Under the pieces are notes generated by a model that worked only from the letters and a program-made list of their open reading frames with translations, was not told the origin of the DNA and did not search any database. A DNA stretch of 64,000 nucleotides from Escherichia coli (GTDB taxonomy: Bacteria; Pseudomonadota; Gammaproteobacteria; Enterobacterales; Enterobacteriaceae): NCBI RefSeq assembly GCF_041886205.1, contig NZ_CP169029.1; one strand, 5' to 3'. The translations under genes and the position numbers were made by a program. Positions 33,046-51,632 of the stretch are shown here, piece after piece (position 1 is the stretch's first letter; the number at the start of each line of letters is the position of its first letter).

Positions 33046-33924
33046 TTACGCCAAATTTACAGAGAAGATTTCCTCGACCATTGCCCCCACCAAACGCTGC
33101 GCTGAACAGAGTCGTGGCATCCCCAGCGCGACAGTTTGCCAACGTTGGGTCACTGACCAGCAAACGGGTTGTTTATCTGCCGTGGTCCACTTTCCCAGCC
33201 AACTTAAAAAATCAGCATGATCCCCGCCCGTCGGAACGGTCGAAGAGGCAAACCACTGATGGTAATAGTGACGCGTGGTCGGGGCCGCATTGATACTCTC
33301 TGCCAGATGTTGTGTCGCTTTCACGCGCAAATCACCCAGCAACAACGCCACCGCTTGCGGGCTTCCCAGACGACAGGCATCGCCAAATGCCCCCCAACGC
33401 AACTCTTCGAGAACGATAAAACAGCGCCCAGGCAACGACCAGGCGTTATACGCCCCAGCACGCCAGCGGGTAAAAATTTGCTCGCTCTGTTCACCCGCCT
33501 GCACCAGTAGGCCTCGTTGCGTTAATGCCTTTTCCTTCCAGCGACAACGGGCTGAAAACCACTCATACAAGGCGGCAATTTGCTGGGGGAGCTCCGGGAA
33601 AGCAGAGTGCTGGCGGTGATCCATTTTTTGCAGCAGCGCCAGATGCTGCGCGATCTGCGTCAGTGCCAGATGACCGGGATCCAGCATCGACGCCAGTTTT
33701 TCCACCAATGTCAGACGCAGGCTAAGCGGCGCATTTAACATGCCGCCGTTCGTCCATGTCTGAAGCTGCACGCGCGCAAGAAGTTCCTGCATCAGTCGTT
33801 CACGAAACTGCTGCTGATGGGCTTGTGGAAGGCGGGCATCATCGCCCTGCGCCAGATCCACTAAAAAGCGGGGATAAACCGACTCCAGCACGCGACCGGG
33901 GCCGTCAAGTAACGTCTTGGTCAA
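33046..33924 (-). CDS. yjcZ: uncharacterized protein YjcZ
   Basis: 292-aa ORF; 4-bp overlap with crfC stop (operon partner). Confidence 0.85.
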   Translation of the reverse strand: MTKTLLDGPGRVLESVYPRFLVDLAQGDDARLPQAHQQQFRERLMQELLARVQLQTWTNGGMLNAPLSLRLTLVEKLASMLDPGHLALTQIAQHLALLQKMDHRQHSAFPELPQQIAALYEWFSARCRWKEKALTQRGLLVQAGEQSEQIFTRWRAGAYNAWSLPGRCFIVLEELRWGAFGDACRLGSPQAVALLLGDLRVKATQHLAESINAAPTTRHYYHQWFASSTVPTGGDHADFLSWLGKWTTADKQPVCWSVTQRWQTVALGMPRLCSAQRLVGAMVEEIFSVNLA

Positions 33925-36149
33925 TATCGTTCTGCCGTGAAAAGTGTTTGAATATCATCGCGTAACAGCTGGGCGTCGGTGTAAATCCAGCCGTGAGTCA
34001 TCACAGTCTGCTGCAATTGCTGCTGCATCAGCCTGACCACCGATTCATTTTGTTGACGCAGAGCCAGACTTTCGCGTAAACGCGTCTGTAATTCCGTCAA
34101 ACATGAAGCGAACTCAGCGAAAAAAGTATTCATGCCTGCCGTAACAGATTCATCGACCTGCTCTGCCAGAACTTTAGCCATTTGTTGGCAATAAAGATCG
34201 ACTTCTGCGCTTAATGCTCGTTGCAACACACTGTAATCAACCGTTTCTGTCGGGGATTTCTCATTTCCCCGTCCCCAGTCAGGCTGATTCAACCAGCGCG
34301 AAAAAGTCTCACGCACAACGCCTAATCGCGTGCTCTGCTCGTCCGTTGCTTCCTGGCGCGAAATGACTTCACTGAACAGCTGGCGAGTGTTGAAGTGGGG
34401 AACTACGCCGTGAAAAACAGGAAAATGAAACCCAGGACGAAACCCTGACTCGCTCAATTCCATTTTGACTTGTTGCTCAATGGGGCGAATAACATCGGTT
34501 AACACCCGGCAAAGGGTGGATTCAAGCTCGGCAAAACGCAGCGTAAAGTCGCGACTGATGGTGTTCTGCGCCGTCTGTAACAGTGTCTCACAGCGGGTAC
34601 GAATCTCGCTTAACGGCTCCGAATCATCCTGAAACAAGGCGGCTAACTGCGCATTCAGCGCATCTTGTTGTTGACGCAGAAAGTGGTTGGCGGAGGTCAG
34701 GGCCAGCTCGATTTCATGTTTAATCTCGCCGCTCACCTGCGCCTGATTGAGTTGCAATAGCTGCAAACTTTCTTCGACCTGATGGATATTTTGCCGCAAT
34801 TGTTCACAAGCGACGTTTAACCCGTGCGCACGAAAATCCAGGTATTCCCGCGCCTGCTGCGCGTAATTCAACAGTTTATGCGCAGCAGATCGCAGAGCAT
34901 ACAACGAGGCGTTAGCGTAAGCGGCATGAAGCAACGCCTGAATTGGCTGGGCGAACAGCGAATCTTCCCACAACTGATCGGCAGCATGACGAATATGTTC
35001 GAGGTCCGCCAGATCGGCATGACGCCAGCGCCTGCCGAGCGCGGCATGGGCAAAATCTTCCACCCAGCGTTGTTGCTCTGGCGCGGGTAACTTACCGTTG
35101 TTGGCTAACTCATGGCGCGCCCGATTCGCCAGGTAGCCCCACATCGACGACACCGGAAATATCTGCTGTGGCGTAATACAGCCTTTCATCAGCGTCCCGG
35201 AAATCAGTGCCCGCACCTGGTCGGCGTCGTCACTGTTACGATCCTGTTGATCGAACTTATTGACCAGCACATACAGCGGCACCGATTGCCCCACCGCCAA
35301 AATCGCCTCACGGACCTCTTCATCGGAGATCGATTTCAGTTGCGTATAATCCAGCACCGCCAGTACCGCCGAGGCGCGTGCCAGCTGCTGGTTAAGCATT
35401 TTTTGCAGATGCGGTTGCCCGGCTTCATTTGGCCCGGGGGTATCCAGTAGCGTCAACTGACCGGGATAACTCTCCAGCCCCGCCAGATGGACAAACTCCA
35501 CTTCAATCACGGGAATATGCTCAATGACGGCGTAAGCAGAAAAAGGAAAATCGACGTCCAGCGCCTTCGCCAGTCGCACTAAATCATTCAAACTTTTCAG
35601 ACAATGAAAAATAGGCTGGGCACCCAGATAATATTTTTCGAAAGCGACGCCATTTTCGATCCGCTGCATAAGCGCACGCATATCTTTATCTATTTCCAGC
35701 ACATCGGTCAGATGCTTAATATCGCAATCACGCAGGCGCTGTTGTAATTGTTGAATTAAACGGTCGATTGGCGCGACATGTGAAAAATGCAGTACCGGTT
35801 CTTTTTGCCCGGGCGTATGGCGAATAAGCGTCGGCAGCGCAGTCATTGGGCGATTACGATTAGGCAGAACCTCCGTACCAACAATGGCATTAATGGTGGT
35901 TGATTTCCCTGCTTTCATGGTACCGACAATTGCAAGCACCATTTCCAGTCGGGAAATTTTACGCAACTCATTATTCAGCATCGCGTGACGTTCGGCGATA
36001 TTAGGCTGACTCCAGGGTAAAGCCAGTTGTGGCGCGTCGTCTCCGGGTACAGAGAGAGACATTTTTTCCAGTAACTGCAACTGTTGGCGAGAAAGCTGTA
36101 ACAGGCGTTCAGCCTCCTGACTTAACTCATACAGGGTCTGTGTGTACAT
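33921..36149 (-). CDS. crfC: dynamin-like GTPase CrfC (YjdA)
   Basis: 742-aa ORF; P-loop GTMKAGKSTTINAIVG; long predicted helical C-terminal region. Confidence 0.9.
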   Translation of the reverse strand: MYTQTLYELSQEAERLLQLSRQQLQLLEKMSLSVPGDDAPQLALPWSQPNIAERHAMLNNELRKISRLEMVLAIVGTMKAGKSTTINAIVGTEVLPNRNRPMTALPTLIRHTPGQKEPVLHFSHVAPIDRLIQQLQQRLRDCDIKHLTDVLEIDKDMRALMQRIENGVAFEKYYLGAQPIFHCLKSLNDLVRLAKALDVDFPFSAYAVIEHIPVIEVEFVHLAGLESYPGQLTLLDTPGPNEAGQPHLQKMLNQQLARASAVLAVLDYTQLKSISDEEVREAILAVGQSVPLYVLVNKFDQQDRNSDDADQVRALISGTLMKGCITPQQIFPVSSMWGYLANRARHELANNGKLPAPEQQRWVEDFAHAALGRRWRHADLADLEHIRHAADQLWEDSLFAQPIQALLHAAYANASLYALRSAAHKLLNYAQQAREYLDFRAHGLNVACEQLRQNIHQVEESLQLLQLNQAQVSGEIKHEIELALTSANHFLRQQQDALNAQLAALFQDDSEPLSEIRTRCETLLQTAQNTISRDFTLRFAELESTLCRVLTDVIRPIEQQVKMELSESGFRPGFHFPVFHGVVPHFNTRQLFSEVISRQEATDEQSTRLGVVRETFSRWLNQPDWGRGNEKSPTETVDYSVLQRALSAEVDLYCQQMAKVLAEQVDESVTAGMNTFFAEFASCLTELQTRLRESLALRQQNESVVRLMQQQLQQTVMTHGWIYTDAQLLRDDIQTLFTAERY

Positions 36150-36549
36150 AGAAAATTCTTCCTTAAAGCAAATTTTGTTATTTTATTTAGCCAGATTGTT
36201 TTTGAGTTCTGTTTTCGGCTTTTATAATTACTGCAAGAAATAATTTTATATTTAGTGTGTTGTTTTTTATCAGAATAAATAACGTCTTCTGATACGTTTA
36301 AAACGTCAGAAAGATAAAAATATCATGTGAATTAAAAAAAGAACAAGTAGAGCATTAACATTATCTTAAATAATAAATAGAGGCAAAAAGATTATTTTCT
36401 TTTTGCGTTTCCTTTCAAATGAAAACGATCGTCGTCTAAAATCAGCAGTACCCCCGACAAACTCAGGGATTTTGTGTATAATTGCGGCCTTTTTCGGCAA
36501 TCTGCCGTTTTTTGGCGCTTTTGCCCTGCTGACTTTTGAGGAAATCCAC

Positions 36550-36885: not shown

Positions 36886-36899
36886 TTGTATTGTGATCG

Positions 36900-37082
<183 letters not shown>

Positions 37083-37142
37083 TCTCATCTGTATAAATTT
37101 CGAACTACACTTAACTGGCTTCTCTTAACTGAGGTCACCATC

Positions 37143-49646: not shown

Positions 49647-51632
49647 ATGAATAACTCTCGGTTATTCCGTTTGAGCAGGATTGTTATTGCGTTAACTGCC
49701 GCCAGCGGCATGATGGTAAATACCGCTAACGCGAAAGAGGAAGCGAAAGCCGCCACTCAATATACCCAACAGGTTAATCAGAATTACGCCAAATCATTAC
49801 CGTTTAGCGATCGTCAGGATTTTGACGATGCCCAGCGTGGATTTATCGCCCCGCTGCTGGATGAAGGTATTCTGCGTGATGCGAACGGTAAAGTTTACTA
49901 CCGCGCGGACGATTACAAATTTGATATTAATGCCGCAGCGCCGGAAACCGTAAACCCCAGCCTGTGGCGTCAGTCGCAAATCAACGGTATTTCTGGCCTG
50001 TTCAAAGTCACCGATAAAATGTATCAGGTGCGCGGCCAGGATATCTCTAACATTACGTTCGTTGAGGGCGAGAAAGGCATTATTGTTATTGACCCACTGG
50101 TGACGCCACCTGCCGCAAAAGCCGCACTTGACCTTTACTTCCAGCATCGTCCGCATAAACCGATTGTTGCCGTTATCTACACTCACAGCCACACTGACCA
50201 CTATGGTGGCGTGAAAGGTATTATCTCTGAAGCCGATGTTAAATCCGGCAAAGTTCAGGTGATTGCCCCTGCAGGCTTTATGGACGAAGCCATCAGCGAA
50301 AACGTGCTGGCGGGTAACATCATGAGCCGCCGTGCGCTCTACTCTTACGGTCTGTTACTGCCGCACAACGCGCAAGGCAACGTGGGTAATGGCCTTGGCG
50401 TGACGCTGGCAACGGGCGACCCGAGCATTATTGCACCGACTAAAACTATCGTCAGAACTGGCGAGAAGATGATTATTGACGGCCTGGAGTTTGACTTCCT
50501 GATGACCCCAGGTAGCGAAGCGCCAGCCGAAATGCACTTCTATATTCCGGCCCTGAAAGCCCTGTGTACCGCCGAGAACGCCACGCATACCCTACACAAC
50601 TTCTACACTCTGCGCGGCGCGAAAACCCGCGATACCAGCAAGTGGACCGAGTACCTGAACGAAACGCTGGATATGTGGGGTAACGACGCGGAAGTCCTGT
50701 TTATGCCGCACACCTGGCCGGTCTGGGGCAATAAGCATATCAATGATTATATTGGTAAATATCGCGATACTATCAAGTACATTCACGACCAGACCCTGCA
50801 CCTGGCGAACCAGGGCTACACCATGAATGAAATCAGCGACATGATTAAGCTGCCGCCTGCACTTGCCAATAACTGGGCCAGCCGTGGCTATTACGGTTCT
50901 GTCAGCCACAACGCCCGCGCGGTGTATAACTTCTATCTTGGCTATTACGACGGTAACCCGGCTAACCTGCATCCGTATGGTCAGGTGGAGATGGGTAAAC
51001 GTTACGTGCAGGCGCTGGGCGGTTCTGCCCGTGTCATCAACCTAGCGCAAGAAGCGAACAAGCAAGGTGATTACCGCTGGTCGGCAGAACTGCTGAAACA
51101 GGTGATTGCCGCCAACCCGGGTGACCAGGTCGCGAAGAATCTGCAAGCGAATAACTTTGAACAGCTGGGCTATCAGGCCGAATCCGCCACCTGGCGCGGT
51201 TTCTACCTGACCGGCGCGAAAGAGCTGCGCGAAGGGGTGCATAAGTTCAGCCACGGCACCACCGGTTCCCCGGACACCATTCGCGGGATGTCGGTCGAAA
51301 TGCTGTTCGACTTTATGTCCGTTCGCCTCGATAGCGCGAAAGCCGCGGGTAAAAATATCAGCCTGAACTTCAATATGAGCAATGGCGATAACCTCAACCT
51401 GACGCTGAACGATAGCGTGCTTAACTACCGTAAAACACTGCAATCCCAAGCTGACGCCTCTTTCTACATCAGCCGTGAAGATCTGCACGCCGTGCTAACC
51501 GGGCAAGCCAAAATGGCGGATCTGGTAAAAGCGAAGAAAGCCAAAATTATTGGCAATGGCGCGAAACTGGAAGAAATTATCGCCTGTCTGGATAATTTCG
51601 ATTTGTGGGTGAATATCGTAACCCCAAATTAA
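49647..51632 (+). CDS. yjcS: putative alkyl/aryl sulfatase YjcS (metallo-beta-lactamase plus SCP2-like domains)
   Basis: 661 aa from [13 protein letters not shown]...; signal peptide; HSHTDH metal motif. Confidence 0.9.

Follow-up and report, generated by a model that had tools for sequence, protein, structure and literature searches.

What does a dynamin-like GTPase gene do in the Escherichia coli chromosome when it overlaps a smaller downstream gene of another family? The original prediction treated the function of this pair as unresolved and hinted at membrane repair or phage resistance. We found that the locus in the window (the whole 64,000-nucleotide stretch of DNA analyzed) is an already known one, the rdcA(crfC/yjdA)–rdcB(yjcZ) operon ordinarily carried in the E. 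coli core genome, and we put at roughly 0.8 the probability that it acts as the RdcA/RdcB switch for the diguanylate cyclase DgcE. The two genes and their junction are as follows.

33921 to 36149, minus strand: rdcA (= crfC = yjdA), 742-aa dynamin-like GTPase with an ATG start (ORF list)
33046 to 33924, minus strand: rdcB (= yjcZ), 292-aa RdcA partner protein with a TTG start (ORF list)
33921 to 33924, minus strand: rdcA/rdcB overlap TTGA, translational-coupling junction of the rdcB start TTG and the rdcA stop TGA (sequence)

The genes are co-oriented neighbors on the minus strand with overlapping stop and start codons, and their boundaries are the same in the RefSeq annotations of an identical genome and of K-12. 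On that strand the junction reads ...CGA TAT TGA CC..., and the T that ends the RdcA Tyr codon, together with the TG of the TGA stop, makes up the rdcB TTG start (33924-33922), so that the coordinates of the two genes share 4 nt (33921-33924). Based on profile matches, neither gene is a chance ORF: RdcA matches Pfam Dynamin_N (2e-18) and the NCBIfam CrfC equivalog NF007368 (1591 bits against a cut-off of 1146, with 1-742 of 742 covered), and RdcB matches Pfam YjcZ PF13990 (3e-145; 483 bits against a cut-off of 27, over 1-272 of the 272 profile positions).

RdcA is 99% identical to K-12 RdcA, with 8 amino acid substitutions (e.g., P31S, C130R, and K499N/V500A), and RdcB is 98% identical to K-12 RdcB, with 7 (e.g., L200R/E201V); none falls within a known motif. 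K-12 RdcA/RdcB (b4109/b4110; Pfiffer et al. 2019) is the same system, sharing the upstream region, the 4-nt overlap, the TTG start, the FliA promoter, and residues K82 and T103, and the K-12 RefSeq gene names are already rdcA and rdcB, “regulator of diguanylate cyclase.” Of 5426 complete E. coli genomes, 5417 carry the rdcA–rdcB locus, which occupies a fixed chromosomal position between proP and yjdM in essentially all E. coli and does not lie on an island. These identities and counts uphold the original naming of the genes as crfC and yjcZ and the description of the pair as conserved with K-12 and “not new.” The coordinates and junction sequence likewise agree with the 4-nt overlap of 742-aa and 292-aa genes described there, although the TTG (not ATG) start of rdcB had gone unmentioned.

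RdcA carries the P-loop GTPase domain and the long helical stalk that had been proposed for it. In addition to the Dynamin_N match, the P-loop GTMKAGKST lies at aa 76-84, and the G1 (GTMKAGKST), G2 (RPMT103), G3 (DTPG), and G4 (NKFD) motifs are all invariant in 79/79 RdcA orthologs. Two features of the gene are relevant here.

35898 to 35924, minus strand: G1/P-loop codons G76-T-M-K-A-G-K82-S-T84, invariant in 79/79 orthologs
34248 to 34454, minus strand: codons for RdcA aa 566-634, an aromatic-rich segment between long helices and candidate paddle/tip equivalent (pLDDT 41-58)

In the AlphaFold2 model, helices at 414-505, 513-568, and 639-741 form an extended stalk after the G domain. Foldseek comparison of this model with the PDB returned full-length members of the dynamin superfamily as the best matches (SynDLP, 1e-10; BDLP1, 2e-10; IniA; Cj-DLP1/2; mitofusins; LeoA), and the best 50 matches were all dynamin-family chains. 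RdcA thus shares a G1-G4 G domain and long helical stalk with BDLP1 (Nostoc), SynDLP, IniA, Cj-DLP1/2, DynA, and LeoA; for alignments of about 700-850 columns with bacterial dynamin-like proteins, E values ranged between 1e-10 and 5e-6, at 11-15% identity. GTP hydrolysis and nucleotide-dependent self-assembly of CrfC were reported by Ozaki 2013, as cited in two later papers (PMC6510439 and PMC6374313). Unlike these relatives, RdcA has no tandem partner gene and no detectable membrane paddle, is partnered by a YjcZ-family protein, and has a signaling enzyme, not a membrane, as its known target. We found no second dynamin-like gene beside rdcA, the downstream gene belonging to the YjcZ family by Pfam, and Michie et al. 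(PMC4159319) described yjdA as “a notable exception” to the usual tandem dynamin-like gene pairs in bacteria. Such tandem pairs are common in the bacterial family and are not a strict requirement. No hydrophobic segment of transmembrane strength was detected across RdcA or RdcB (maximum KD(19), 1.34), and RdcA/CrfC has been described as soluble and without a membrane-binding motif (PMC6374313 and Pfiffer et al.). As judged from the sequences, the lack of such segments in both proteins is consistent with soluble RdcA/RdcB docking on a membrane partner, and the segment at aa 566-634 may be what contacts the MASE1 domain or the membrane.

RdcB is predicted with confidence to adopt an all-helical fold, for which we found no fold relative in the PDB, and we recognized no catalytic motif in the protein. 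An invariant surface of RdcB comprises LEELRWGxFGD, W154, W224, R277, and E285. We scanned genomes for the RdcB family with a 19-sequence RdcB alignment. At all 80 of the 80 loci from named species, the gene was adjacent to an RdcA-type gene and always downstream of it, and a 4-nt overlap was present at 74/80 of the junctions compared. The overlap is ATGA in other genera, and TTGA was seen solely in the window and in two other Escherichia loci. Trees of the RdcA-type proteins and of RdcB are largely mirror images. The adjacency, the overlaps, and the mirrored trees together fit an obligate two-protein unit. An AlphaFold2 prediction of RdcA fused to RdcB through a 30-aa linker (24 paired sequences) had a pLDDT of 77.9 and a pTM of 0.67, which are whole-chain scores from which no interface is claimed.

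To the gene identities, intact motifs, gene pairing, and folds observed here, the literature adds interactions, phenotypes, and GTP-state dependence. Pfiffer et al. (PLoS Genet 2019, PMC6510439) identified RdcB, RdcA itself, and the MASE1 domain of DgcE as two-hybrid partners of RdcA. In the same study, deleting rdcA or rdcB reproduced, without additivity, the effects of losing dgcE on CsgD, curli, macrocolony matrix, and c-di-GMP; the known phenotypes were fully epistatic with dgcE, and the older motility-suppressor phenotype was also shown. RdcA/RdcB thus switches on c-di-GMP synthesis and curli/cellulose production via DgcE (PMC6510439). The dependence on GTPase state comes from mutation of K82 and T103 of RdcA: the K82A variant complements, and T103D fails to do so and loses DgcE binding (PMC6510439). 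DgcE could not be purified, which precluded in vitro reconstitution, and the published mechanism comes from genetics and two-hybrid analysis, with the GTP pool as signal deduced by the authors (PMC6510439). An independent, genome-wide FRET-To-Sort screen from 2026 likewise found low c-di-GMP in rdcA, rdcB, and dgcE mutants (PMC13031359). Given this published function, confirmed by the screen, the view of the locus as unresolved is outdated, as is that of yjcZ as uncharacterized: rdcB is named in K-12 RefSeq, and its interaction and deletion phenotypes are published (PMC6510439). Both a phenotype and an interaction for the pair, the two things on which the original prediction was to stand or fall, have already been demonstrated experimentally (PMC6510439). 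As a core operon that is well annotated and whose role is published, the locus carries little weight as an open question, and we do not carry it forward as one.

In the mechanism that we favor, RdcA is a dynamin-like GTPase that is soluble, associates with itself, and binds RdcB; the latter, whose exact role is putative, is small, all helical, and translated from the overlapping downstream gene. RdcA would be freed from a GTP-bound lock either after hydrolysis or when the GTP pool drops at entry into stationary phase, the pool being the presumed signal. The RdcA/RdcB complex would then dock on the membrane-embedded MASE1 domain of DgcE, which would promote DgcE dimerization and c-di-GMP synthesis. 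The dgcE gene, for a MASE1-PAS-GGDEF-EALdeg protein, is not in the 64-kb window but far from it. Expression of rdcA-rdcB is linked to the flagellar regulon, one element being a FliA promoter that lies within rdcA and drives rdcB. The regulatory features are listed below.

34149 to 34176, minus strand: intragenic sigma-28 (FliA) promoter in rdcA driving rdcB, an exact match (0 mismatches) to the published site
36150 to 36549, no strand assigned: AT-rich divergent rdcA/yjdM intergenic region (GC 35-40%), upstream control region of the operon

Fitzgerald et al. 2014 (PMC4183435) gave the published FliA site as TAAAGTTCTGGCAGAGCAGGTCGATGAA. In most orthologs a similar FliA-type motif is found at the equivalent position (-252); we do not take this cross-genus conservation as evidence, because the motif overlaps conserved codons. 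The intergenic region is 100% identical to that of K-12 and contained sigma-70-like matches alone. A FliA promoter 5' of rdcA was rejected, with no FliA consensus found within 3 mismatches at 36150-36549 and an earlier prediction of such a promoter called wrong by Fitzgerald et al. (PMC4183435). Control of yjcZ-proP by NtrC was also set aside, since the source paper paired a ChIP peak with a negative EMSA.

The strongest competing account assigns the 742-aa protein mainly to replication and the nucleoid under the name CrfC (Ozaki et al. 2013; Taniguchi et al. 2019), which is the same polypeptide as RdcA with another proposed function. In this account, CrfC oligomers bind the beta sliding clamp through an N-terminal QLALP motif and hold sister forks together just after initiation, and the protein also localizes to nucleoid poles to bring about equal chromosome partition. 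The motif is present in the window as follows.

36015 to 36029, minus strand: beta-clamp-binding motif codons Q41-L-A-L-P45, as defined in PMC6374313

We consider it rather unlikely that this is the primary role of the protein, which might also moonlight alongside its RdcA role. In its favor, NCBIfam names the family “clamp-binding protein CrfC,” Q41-LALP is intact in the window, and the motif sits in a low-confidence, predicted disordered loop (aa 35-43, pLDDT < 50) between two helices, as is usual for short linear clamp motifs. PMC6374313 also describes binding to the clamp, the appearance of anucleate cells when crfC is deleted or carries Q41A, and focus localization that depends on HU and MukB. 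However, Q41, whose mutation abolishes clamp binding, is found in at most 3/79 orthologs (it is missing in at least 76/79) and is thus essentially limited to E. coli; Escherichia sp. E1V33 and E. whittamii have PLTLPW, and most genera have N-V-L-P-L-H-F. Conservation within RdcA is lowest at residues 26-50 (0.57, compared with 0.9-1.0 in the G domain). An L-x-L-x-[F/W] pattern persists in the RdcA orthologs, and a degenerate clamp motif is possible. Additionally, clamp binding is GTP independent, many of the in vivo experiments used plasmid-expressed protein, and the deletion has no growth defect (PMC6510439). A CrfC role also leaves the strictly conserved pairing with rdcB and control by the flagellar regulon unexplained. 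The near confinement of the clamp Gln to E. coli, set against invariant GTPase motifs and RdcB pairing, favors RdcA/RdcB signaling as the conserved function, a distinction possibly useful to specialists.

We regard as very improbable the remaining alternative, in which the pair acts like DynA or LeoABC (“Dynamins”/Eleos) by sealing or reshaping membranes under stress or phage lysis. RdcA does have the fold of a full-length bacterial dynamin-like protein, PADLOC returned weak partial matches of RdcA to LeoBC (3.6e-6) and LeoA (2e-5), DynA and Leo proteins are documented in defense, and distant relatives of the pair are tied to a patatin phospholipase among defense genes. Against this, the core pair is fixed between proP and yjdM, off any island, in essentially all E. 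coli; a membrane-binding segment was not detected in RdcA, which the literature describes as soluble; and the known phenotypes are wholly epistatic with dgcE (PMC6510439). The PADLOC scores reflect family-level G-domain/stalk similarity alone and are far below the LeoA/LeoBC family level, RdcB had no match, and “Dynamins”/Eleos (LeoA plus LeoBC, both dynamin-superfamily GTPases) needs two or three dynamin-like genes, whereas rdcA-rdcB comprises one and a YjcZ protein. Neither a patatin gene nor a relic of one was found in the 64-kb window (tblastn with six module patatins; best E, 0.42, away from the locus), and rdcB is followed by 230 bp of the proP promoter region, with no patatin-like phospholipase gene directly downstream. 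We thus rejected a defense system as the role of the core pair, and the original hint of membrane repair or phage resistance finds no support for it.

RdcA/RdcB as a switch for DgcE may nonetheless be one branch of a broader family. The family comprises about 200 clusters, and in all 10 of the 10 distant members examined, the dynamin and YjcZ genes share an operon with a third gene, for a patatin phospholipase, located on mobile or defense islands. This accessory module of E. coli islands and enterobacterial plasmids is paralogous to rdcA-rdcB (33% identity for the dynamin and about 31% for the YjcZ protein), has the same gene order and 4-nt overlap, and is absent from the window. One example lies in E. 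coli MS 200-1 (NZ_CP146679.1, 1934865–1939218). What sets the module apart from the core pair is its third gene, whose patatin product retains the GGGAxG, GASIG, and DG[AG] motifs intact. A 2026 paper (PMC12922286) called the module a “putative defense system,” a function that is predicted. A phage origin of the family was rejected, with no tblastn match in 50,697 phage genomes and a single match among 2.9 million IMG/VR contigs. Midpoint-rooted neighbor-joining trees without an outgroup disagree on loss versus gain of the patatin: the RdcA tree unites one three-gene member with the two-gene clade, whereas in the RdcB tree the two-gene and three-gene groups are reciprocally monophyletic.

We tentatively suggest, at somewhat short of even odds, that the core rdcA-rdcB pair is a chromosomally fixed, effector-less branch of this mobile three-gene family, whose modules occupy defense or integrative islands, plasmids, and a prophage end. 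The GTPase and YjcZ protein could then form a switch of general use, set by nucleotide state, that permits a membrane-directed effector to act: the patatin phospholipase in mobile modules, possibly in abortive infection, and the MASE1 cyclase DgcE in the domesticated enterobacterial copy. The widespread dynamin–YjcZ–patatin operon, which may likewise be of use to specialists, offers a concrete approach to the function of RdcB-type proteins and to the possibility that a dynamin-like GTPase controls a phospholipase effector. The three-gene module occurs in about 45% of E. coli genomes; if the suggestion is correct, this proportion of strains carries both versions, with possible cross-talk into c-di-GMP signaling. 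Its carriers include a CP4-44-type island, 44 plasmids, and one prophage-like contig.

The rdcA-rdcB pair (alternatively crfC or yjdA, and yjcZ) is a locus whose function is already known, not new. The following features were located within it and elsewhere in the window:

33046..33924, minus strand: rdcB, 292 aa, TTG start (ORF list)
33921..36149, minus strand: rdcA, 742 aa, ATG start, co-oriented with rdcB (ORF list)
33922-33924, minus strand: rdcB start codon TTG, inside a TTGA overlap (junction sequence)
34149–34176, minus strand: published 28-nt FliA promoter inside rdcA, zero mismatches
36015-36029, minus strand: clamp-binding motif QLALP, RdcA aa 41-45, the motif that defines "CrfC"
49889-49915, plus strand: second FliA-consensus-like site, TAAAGTTT-N11-GACGATTA, 2 mismatches

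Both ORFs are genuine genes, based on their Pfam and NCBIfam matches, near-universal presence in E. coli, and identity to K-12. The 742-aa protein carries the P-loop GTMKAGKST (aa 76–84) and a Dynamin_N match (2e-18) and scores 1591 bits against the NCBIfam equivalog "clamp-binding protein CrfC" (cutoff, 1146); the 292-aa protein matches YjcZ/PF13990 over its full length (3e-145). The P-loop and the two-gene dynamin-like/yjcZ architecture named in the original prediction are thus borne out, as is conservation with K-12: protein identity to MG1655 is 99% for RdcA (734/742) and 98% for RdcB (285/292), the 400 bp upstream of rdcA show no difference, and the gene order is the same (eptA-basRS, pmrR, proP, rdcB-rdcA, yjdM, yjdN, phnCDE). 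The 3.5-kb rdcB-rdcA region was found in 5417 of 5426 complete E. coli genomes. One of these matches at 100%, with the RefSeq gene names crfC and rdcB; the K-12 RefSeq names are rdcA and rdcB, “regulator of diguanylate cyclase.”

The view that the function is unresolved is outdated, as a role with the diguanylate cyclase DgcE has been published (PMC6510439, PMC13031359). Pfiffer et al. (2019, PMC6510439), who took earlier motility-suppressor mutations in yjdA and yjcZ as their starting point, reported that deletion of either gene phenocopies a dgcE deletion, nonadditively, in macrocolony matrix, CsgD, csgB::lacZ, and c-di-GMP. In two-hybrid assays, RdcA bound RdcB, itself, and the DgcE MASE1 domain. 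RdcB interacted neither with itself nor with DgcE; RdcA-K82A complemented the deletion, and the GTP-locked variant RdcA-T103D did not complement and lost DgcE binding. In their model, a falling GTP pool places GTP-free RdcA/RdcB on the membrane-embedded MASE1 domain, leading to DgcE dimerization. Both K82 and T103 are unaltered in the window RdcA. A genome-wide FRET-To-Sort screen in 2026 again recovered rdcA, rdcB, and dgcE as low-c-di-GMP mutants and found a strong association of ynjH, a FliA-regulon gene of unknown function, with the RdcA/RdcB/DgcE system (PMC13031359); ynjH, which lies outside the window, may be a further component. With a probability of about 0.8, the likeliest mechanism is the published one, in which RdcA/RdcB would act on DgcE (MASE1), this step would lead to the c-di-GMP switch, and the flagellar regulon would control RdcA/RdcB. 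A FliA promoter within yjdA that drives yjcZ was mapped by Fitzgerald et al. (2014, PMC4183435). The plus-strand FliA-like site at 49889-49915 is absent from the published FliA site list consulted for comparison, and two such matches in the window are within chance expectation (11/100 shuffles).

We modeled RdcA fused to RdcB through a 30-aa Gly/Ser linker, using 24 paired sequences (17 core and 7 distant; AF2 pLDDT, 77.9; pTM, 0.67). RdcA is predicted to comprise a G domain (about aa 69–350), very long helices (414–505, 513–568, and 639–741), a disordered loop around the clamp motif (aa 35–43), and a low-confidence segment rich in aromatics (aa 566–634). Its best PDB matches all belong to the dynamin superfamily: SynDLP (1e-10), BDLP1 (2e-10), IniA, Cj-DLP1/2, Fzo1/mitofusins, dynamin, Drp1, LeoA, and OPA1. 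Because of these helices and matches, the expected long helical stalk typical of dynamin-like proteins holds. A sequence scan of RdcA and RdcB found no transmembrane-strength hydrophobic segment in either.

The RdcB family is small: 5.8 billion proteins include just 232 of its clusters when grouped at 90% identity. At 50% identity it has 197 representatives, the most distant at about 22% identity. A relative is encoded in 143 of 100,044 species genomes scanned. The titles of the best 80 of these 143 are almost solely Enterobacteriaceae (among them Escherichia, Citrobacter, Enterobacter, Kosakonia, Phytobacter, Lelliottia, Leclercia, Trabulsiella, Yokenella, Atlantibacter, and Franconibacter), and an RdcA ortholog lies directly upstream on the same strand in 80/80 of those loci. 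Relative to 76/79 orthologs (~784 aa), the 742-aa Escherichia RdcA is missing two segments, one of 8 aa following residue 34 and one of 36 aa following residue 512; the longer gap coincides with the turn that joins the two long stalk helices and would therefore shorten the stalk hairpin in E. coli RdcA. Three E. coli database proteins of 438-442 aa (P0020-P0022) match Dynamin_N and YjcZ in a single chain, the last ~210 aa of RdcB being joined behind another segment; they probably represent rdcA-rdcB alleles that carry a frameshift or deletion in some E. coli genomes.

RdcA had previously been reported under the name CrfC, as a dynamin homolog that binds the clamp, carries the motif 41-QLALP, and is needed for sister-fork colocalization and nucleoid partition (PMC6374313). 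Clamp binding of this type is possible as a moonlighting role, seemingly specific to E. coli: Q41-LALP is intact in the window RdcA, but no more than 3 of 79 orthologs have Q41, the sequence being PLTLPW in two other Escherichia species and N-V-L-P-L-H-F in most genera. By this alignment, there is no conservation of the glutamine shown to be required in E. coli. The motif lies in the disordered and least conserved stretch of RdcA (aa 26–50), in contrast to the G1–G4 motifs, which are unchanged in 79/79 orthologs. An LxLx[F/W] pattern is retained at its position across orthologs, which might conceivably represent a degenerate clamp motif. The suggestion of phage resistance for the core pair is unsupported: likeness to the “Dynamins” defense systems is confined to weak, partial PADLOC matches of RdcA to LeoBC and LeoA, with nothing stronger and none for RdcB; the pair is fixed in the E. 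coli core genome; and the locus has no second dynamin-like gene, whereas tandem genes are usual elsewhere, yjdA being a “notable exception” (Michie et al., PMC4159319).

At the minus-strand junction (...CGA TAT TGA CC...), the rdcB TTG start runs into the rdcA TGA stop, so that the ORFs have 4 nt in common, as predicted originally. A 4-nt overlap occurs at 74/80 junctions compared (the window and 79 related loci); it is TTGA in just three Escherichia loci, one of them that of the window, and ATGA, with an ATG start, in all 71 others, which come from other genera. By this comparison, Escherichia has evidently replaced a strong rdcB start codon with a weak one, a lineage-specific weakening that should lower RdcB output or tie it to coupling. 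Given the weak start and no obvious Shine-Dalgarno sequence before the window rdcB (junction judged by eye), Escherichia probably needs coupling to rdcA translation for RdcB synthesis.

Outside the window, distant YjcZ-family proteins (~300 aa; 23–32% identity to RdcB) are encoded in a three-gene operon whose genes overlap tightly. A dynamin-like GTPase of ~800 aa is encoded ahead of the YjcZ-like protein, and a patatin-like phospholipase of ~355–380 aa, which the core pair lacks, after it. The patatin gene lies directly downstream of the YjcZ-like gene in 10/10 contexts examined (L083–L086 and L088–L093), and GGGAxG, GASIG, and DG[AG] motifs are intact in the 6 patatins among them with full-length protein. 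Operon loci include E. coli MS 200-1 (L088:7361-11714), plasmid pAW1.7_2 (L092), L085, L089, L090, L091, and L093. One version, which belongs to a 4,088-member protein cluster found in E. coli itself, is present in 2445/5426 complete E. coli genomes. It is located on a CP4-44-type island, adjoining antirestriction and cbtA/cbeA genes. Relatives occur on 44 plasmids (Escherichia, Klebsiella, Enterobacter, and Citrobacter) and one prophage-like contig, beside a tape-measure gene at the prophage end, with none among 50,697 phage genomes. Neighbors elsewhere include type I R-M genes, HEPN with MoxR/VWA, a PIN/Phd toxin-antitoxin pair, and a NERD-helicase; the operon usually sits beside defense or toxin-antitoxin genes. 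It has no PADLOC model. A 2026 transcriptomics paper found it strongly upregulated in a lysogen and named it a “putative defense system” without a functional test, its authors having found no dynamin-phospholipase link in the literature (PMC12922286). The window contains neither an operon copy nor a patatin relic. In trees, the two-gene clade is monophyletic, and the divergence of the three-gene members is no less deep; one of the latter clusters with the core clade for RdcA but not for RdcB. The core pair might be a domesticated branch of a mobile dynamin-YjcZ-patatin family, a reading that concerns loci outside the window.

One further difference from K-12 lies in the yjdM-yjdN intergenic region:

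36886-37142: REP/BIME-type tandem array of ~100-bp units

The array has about 2 units (257 bp) in the window versus about 6 (657 bp) in K-12, and related units lie near window positions 11.07, 12.3, 39.6, 44.9, and 59.8 kb.
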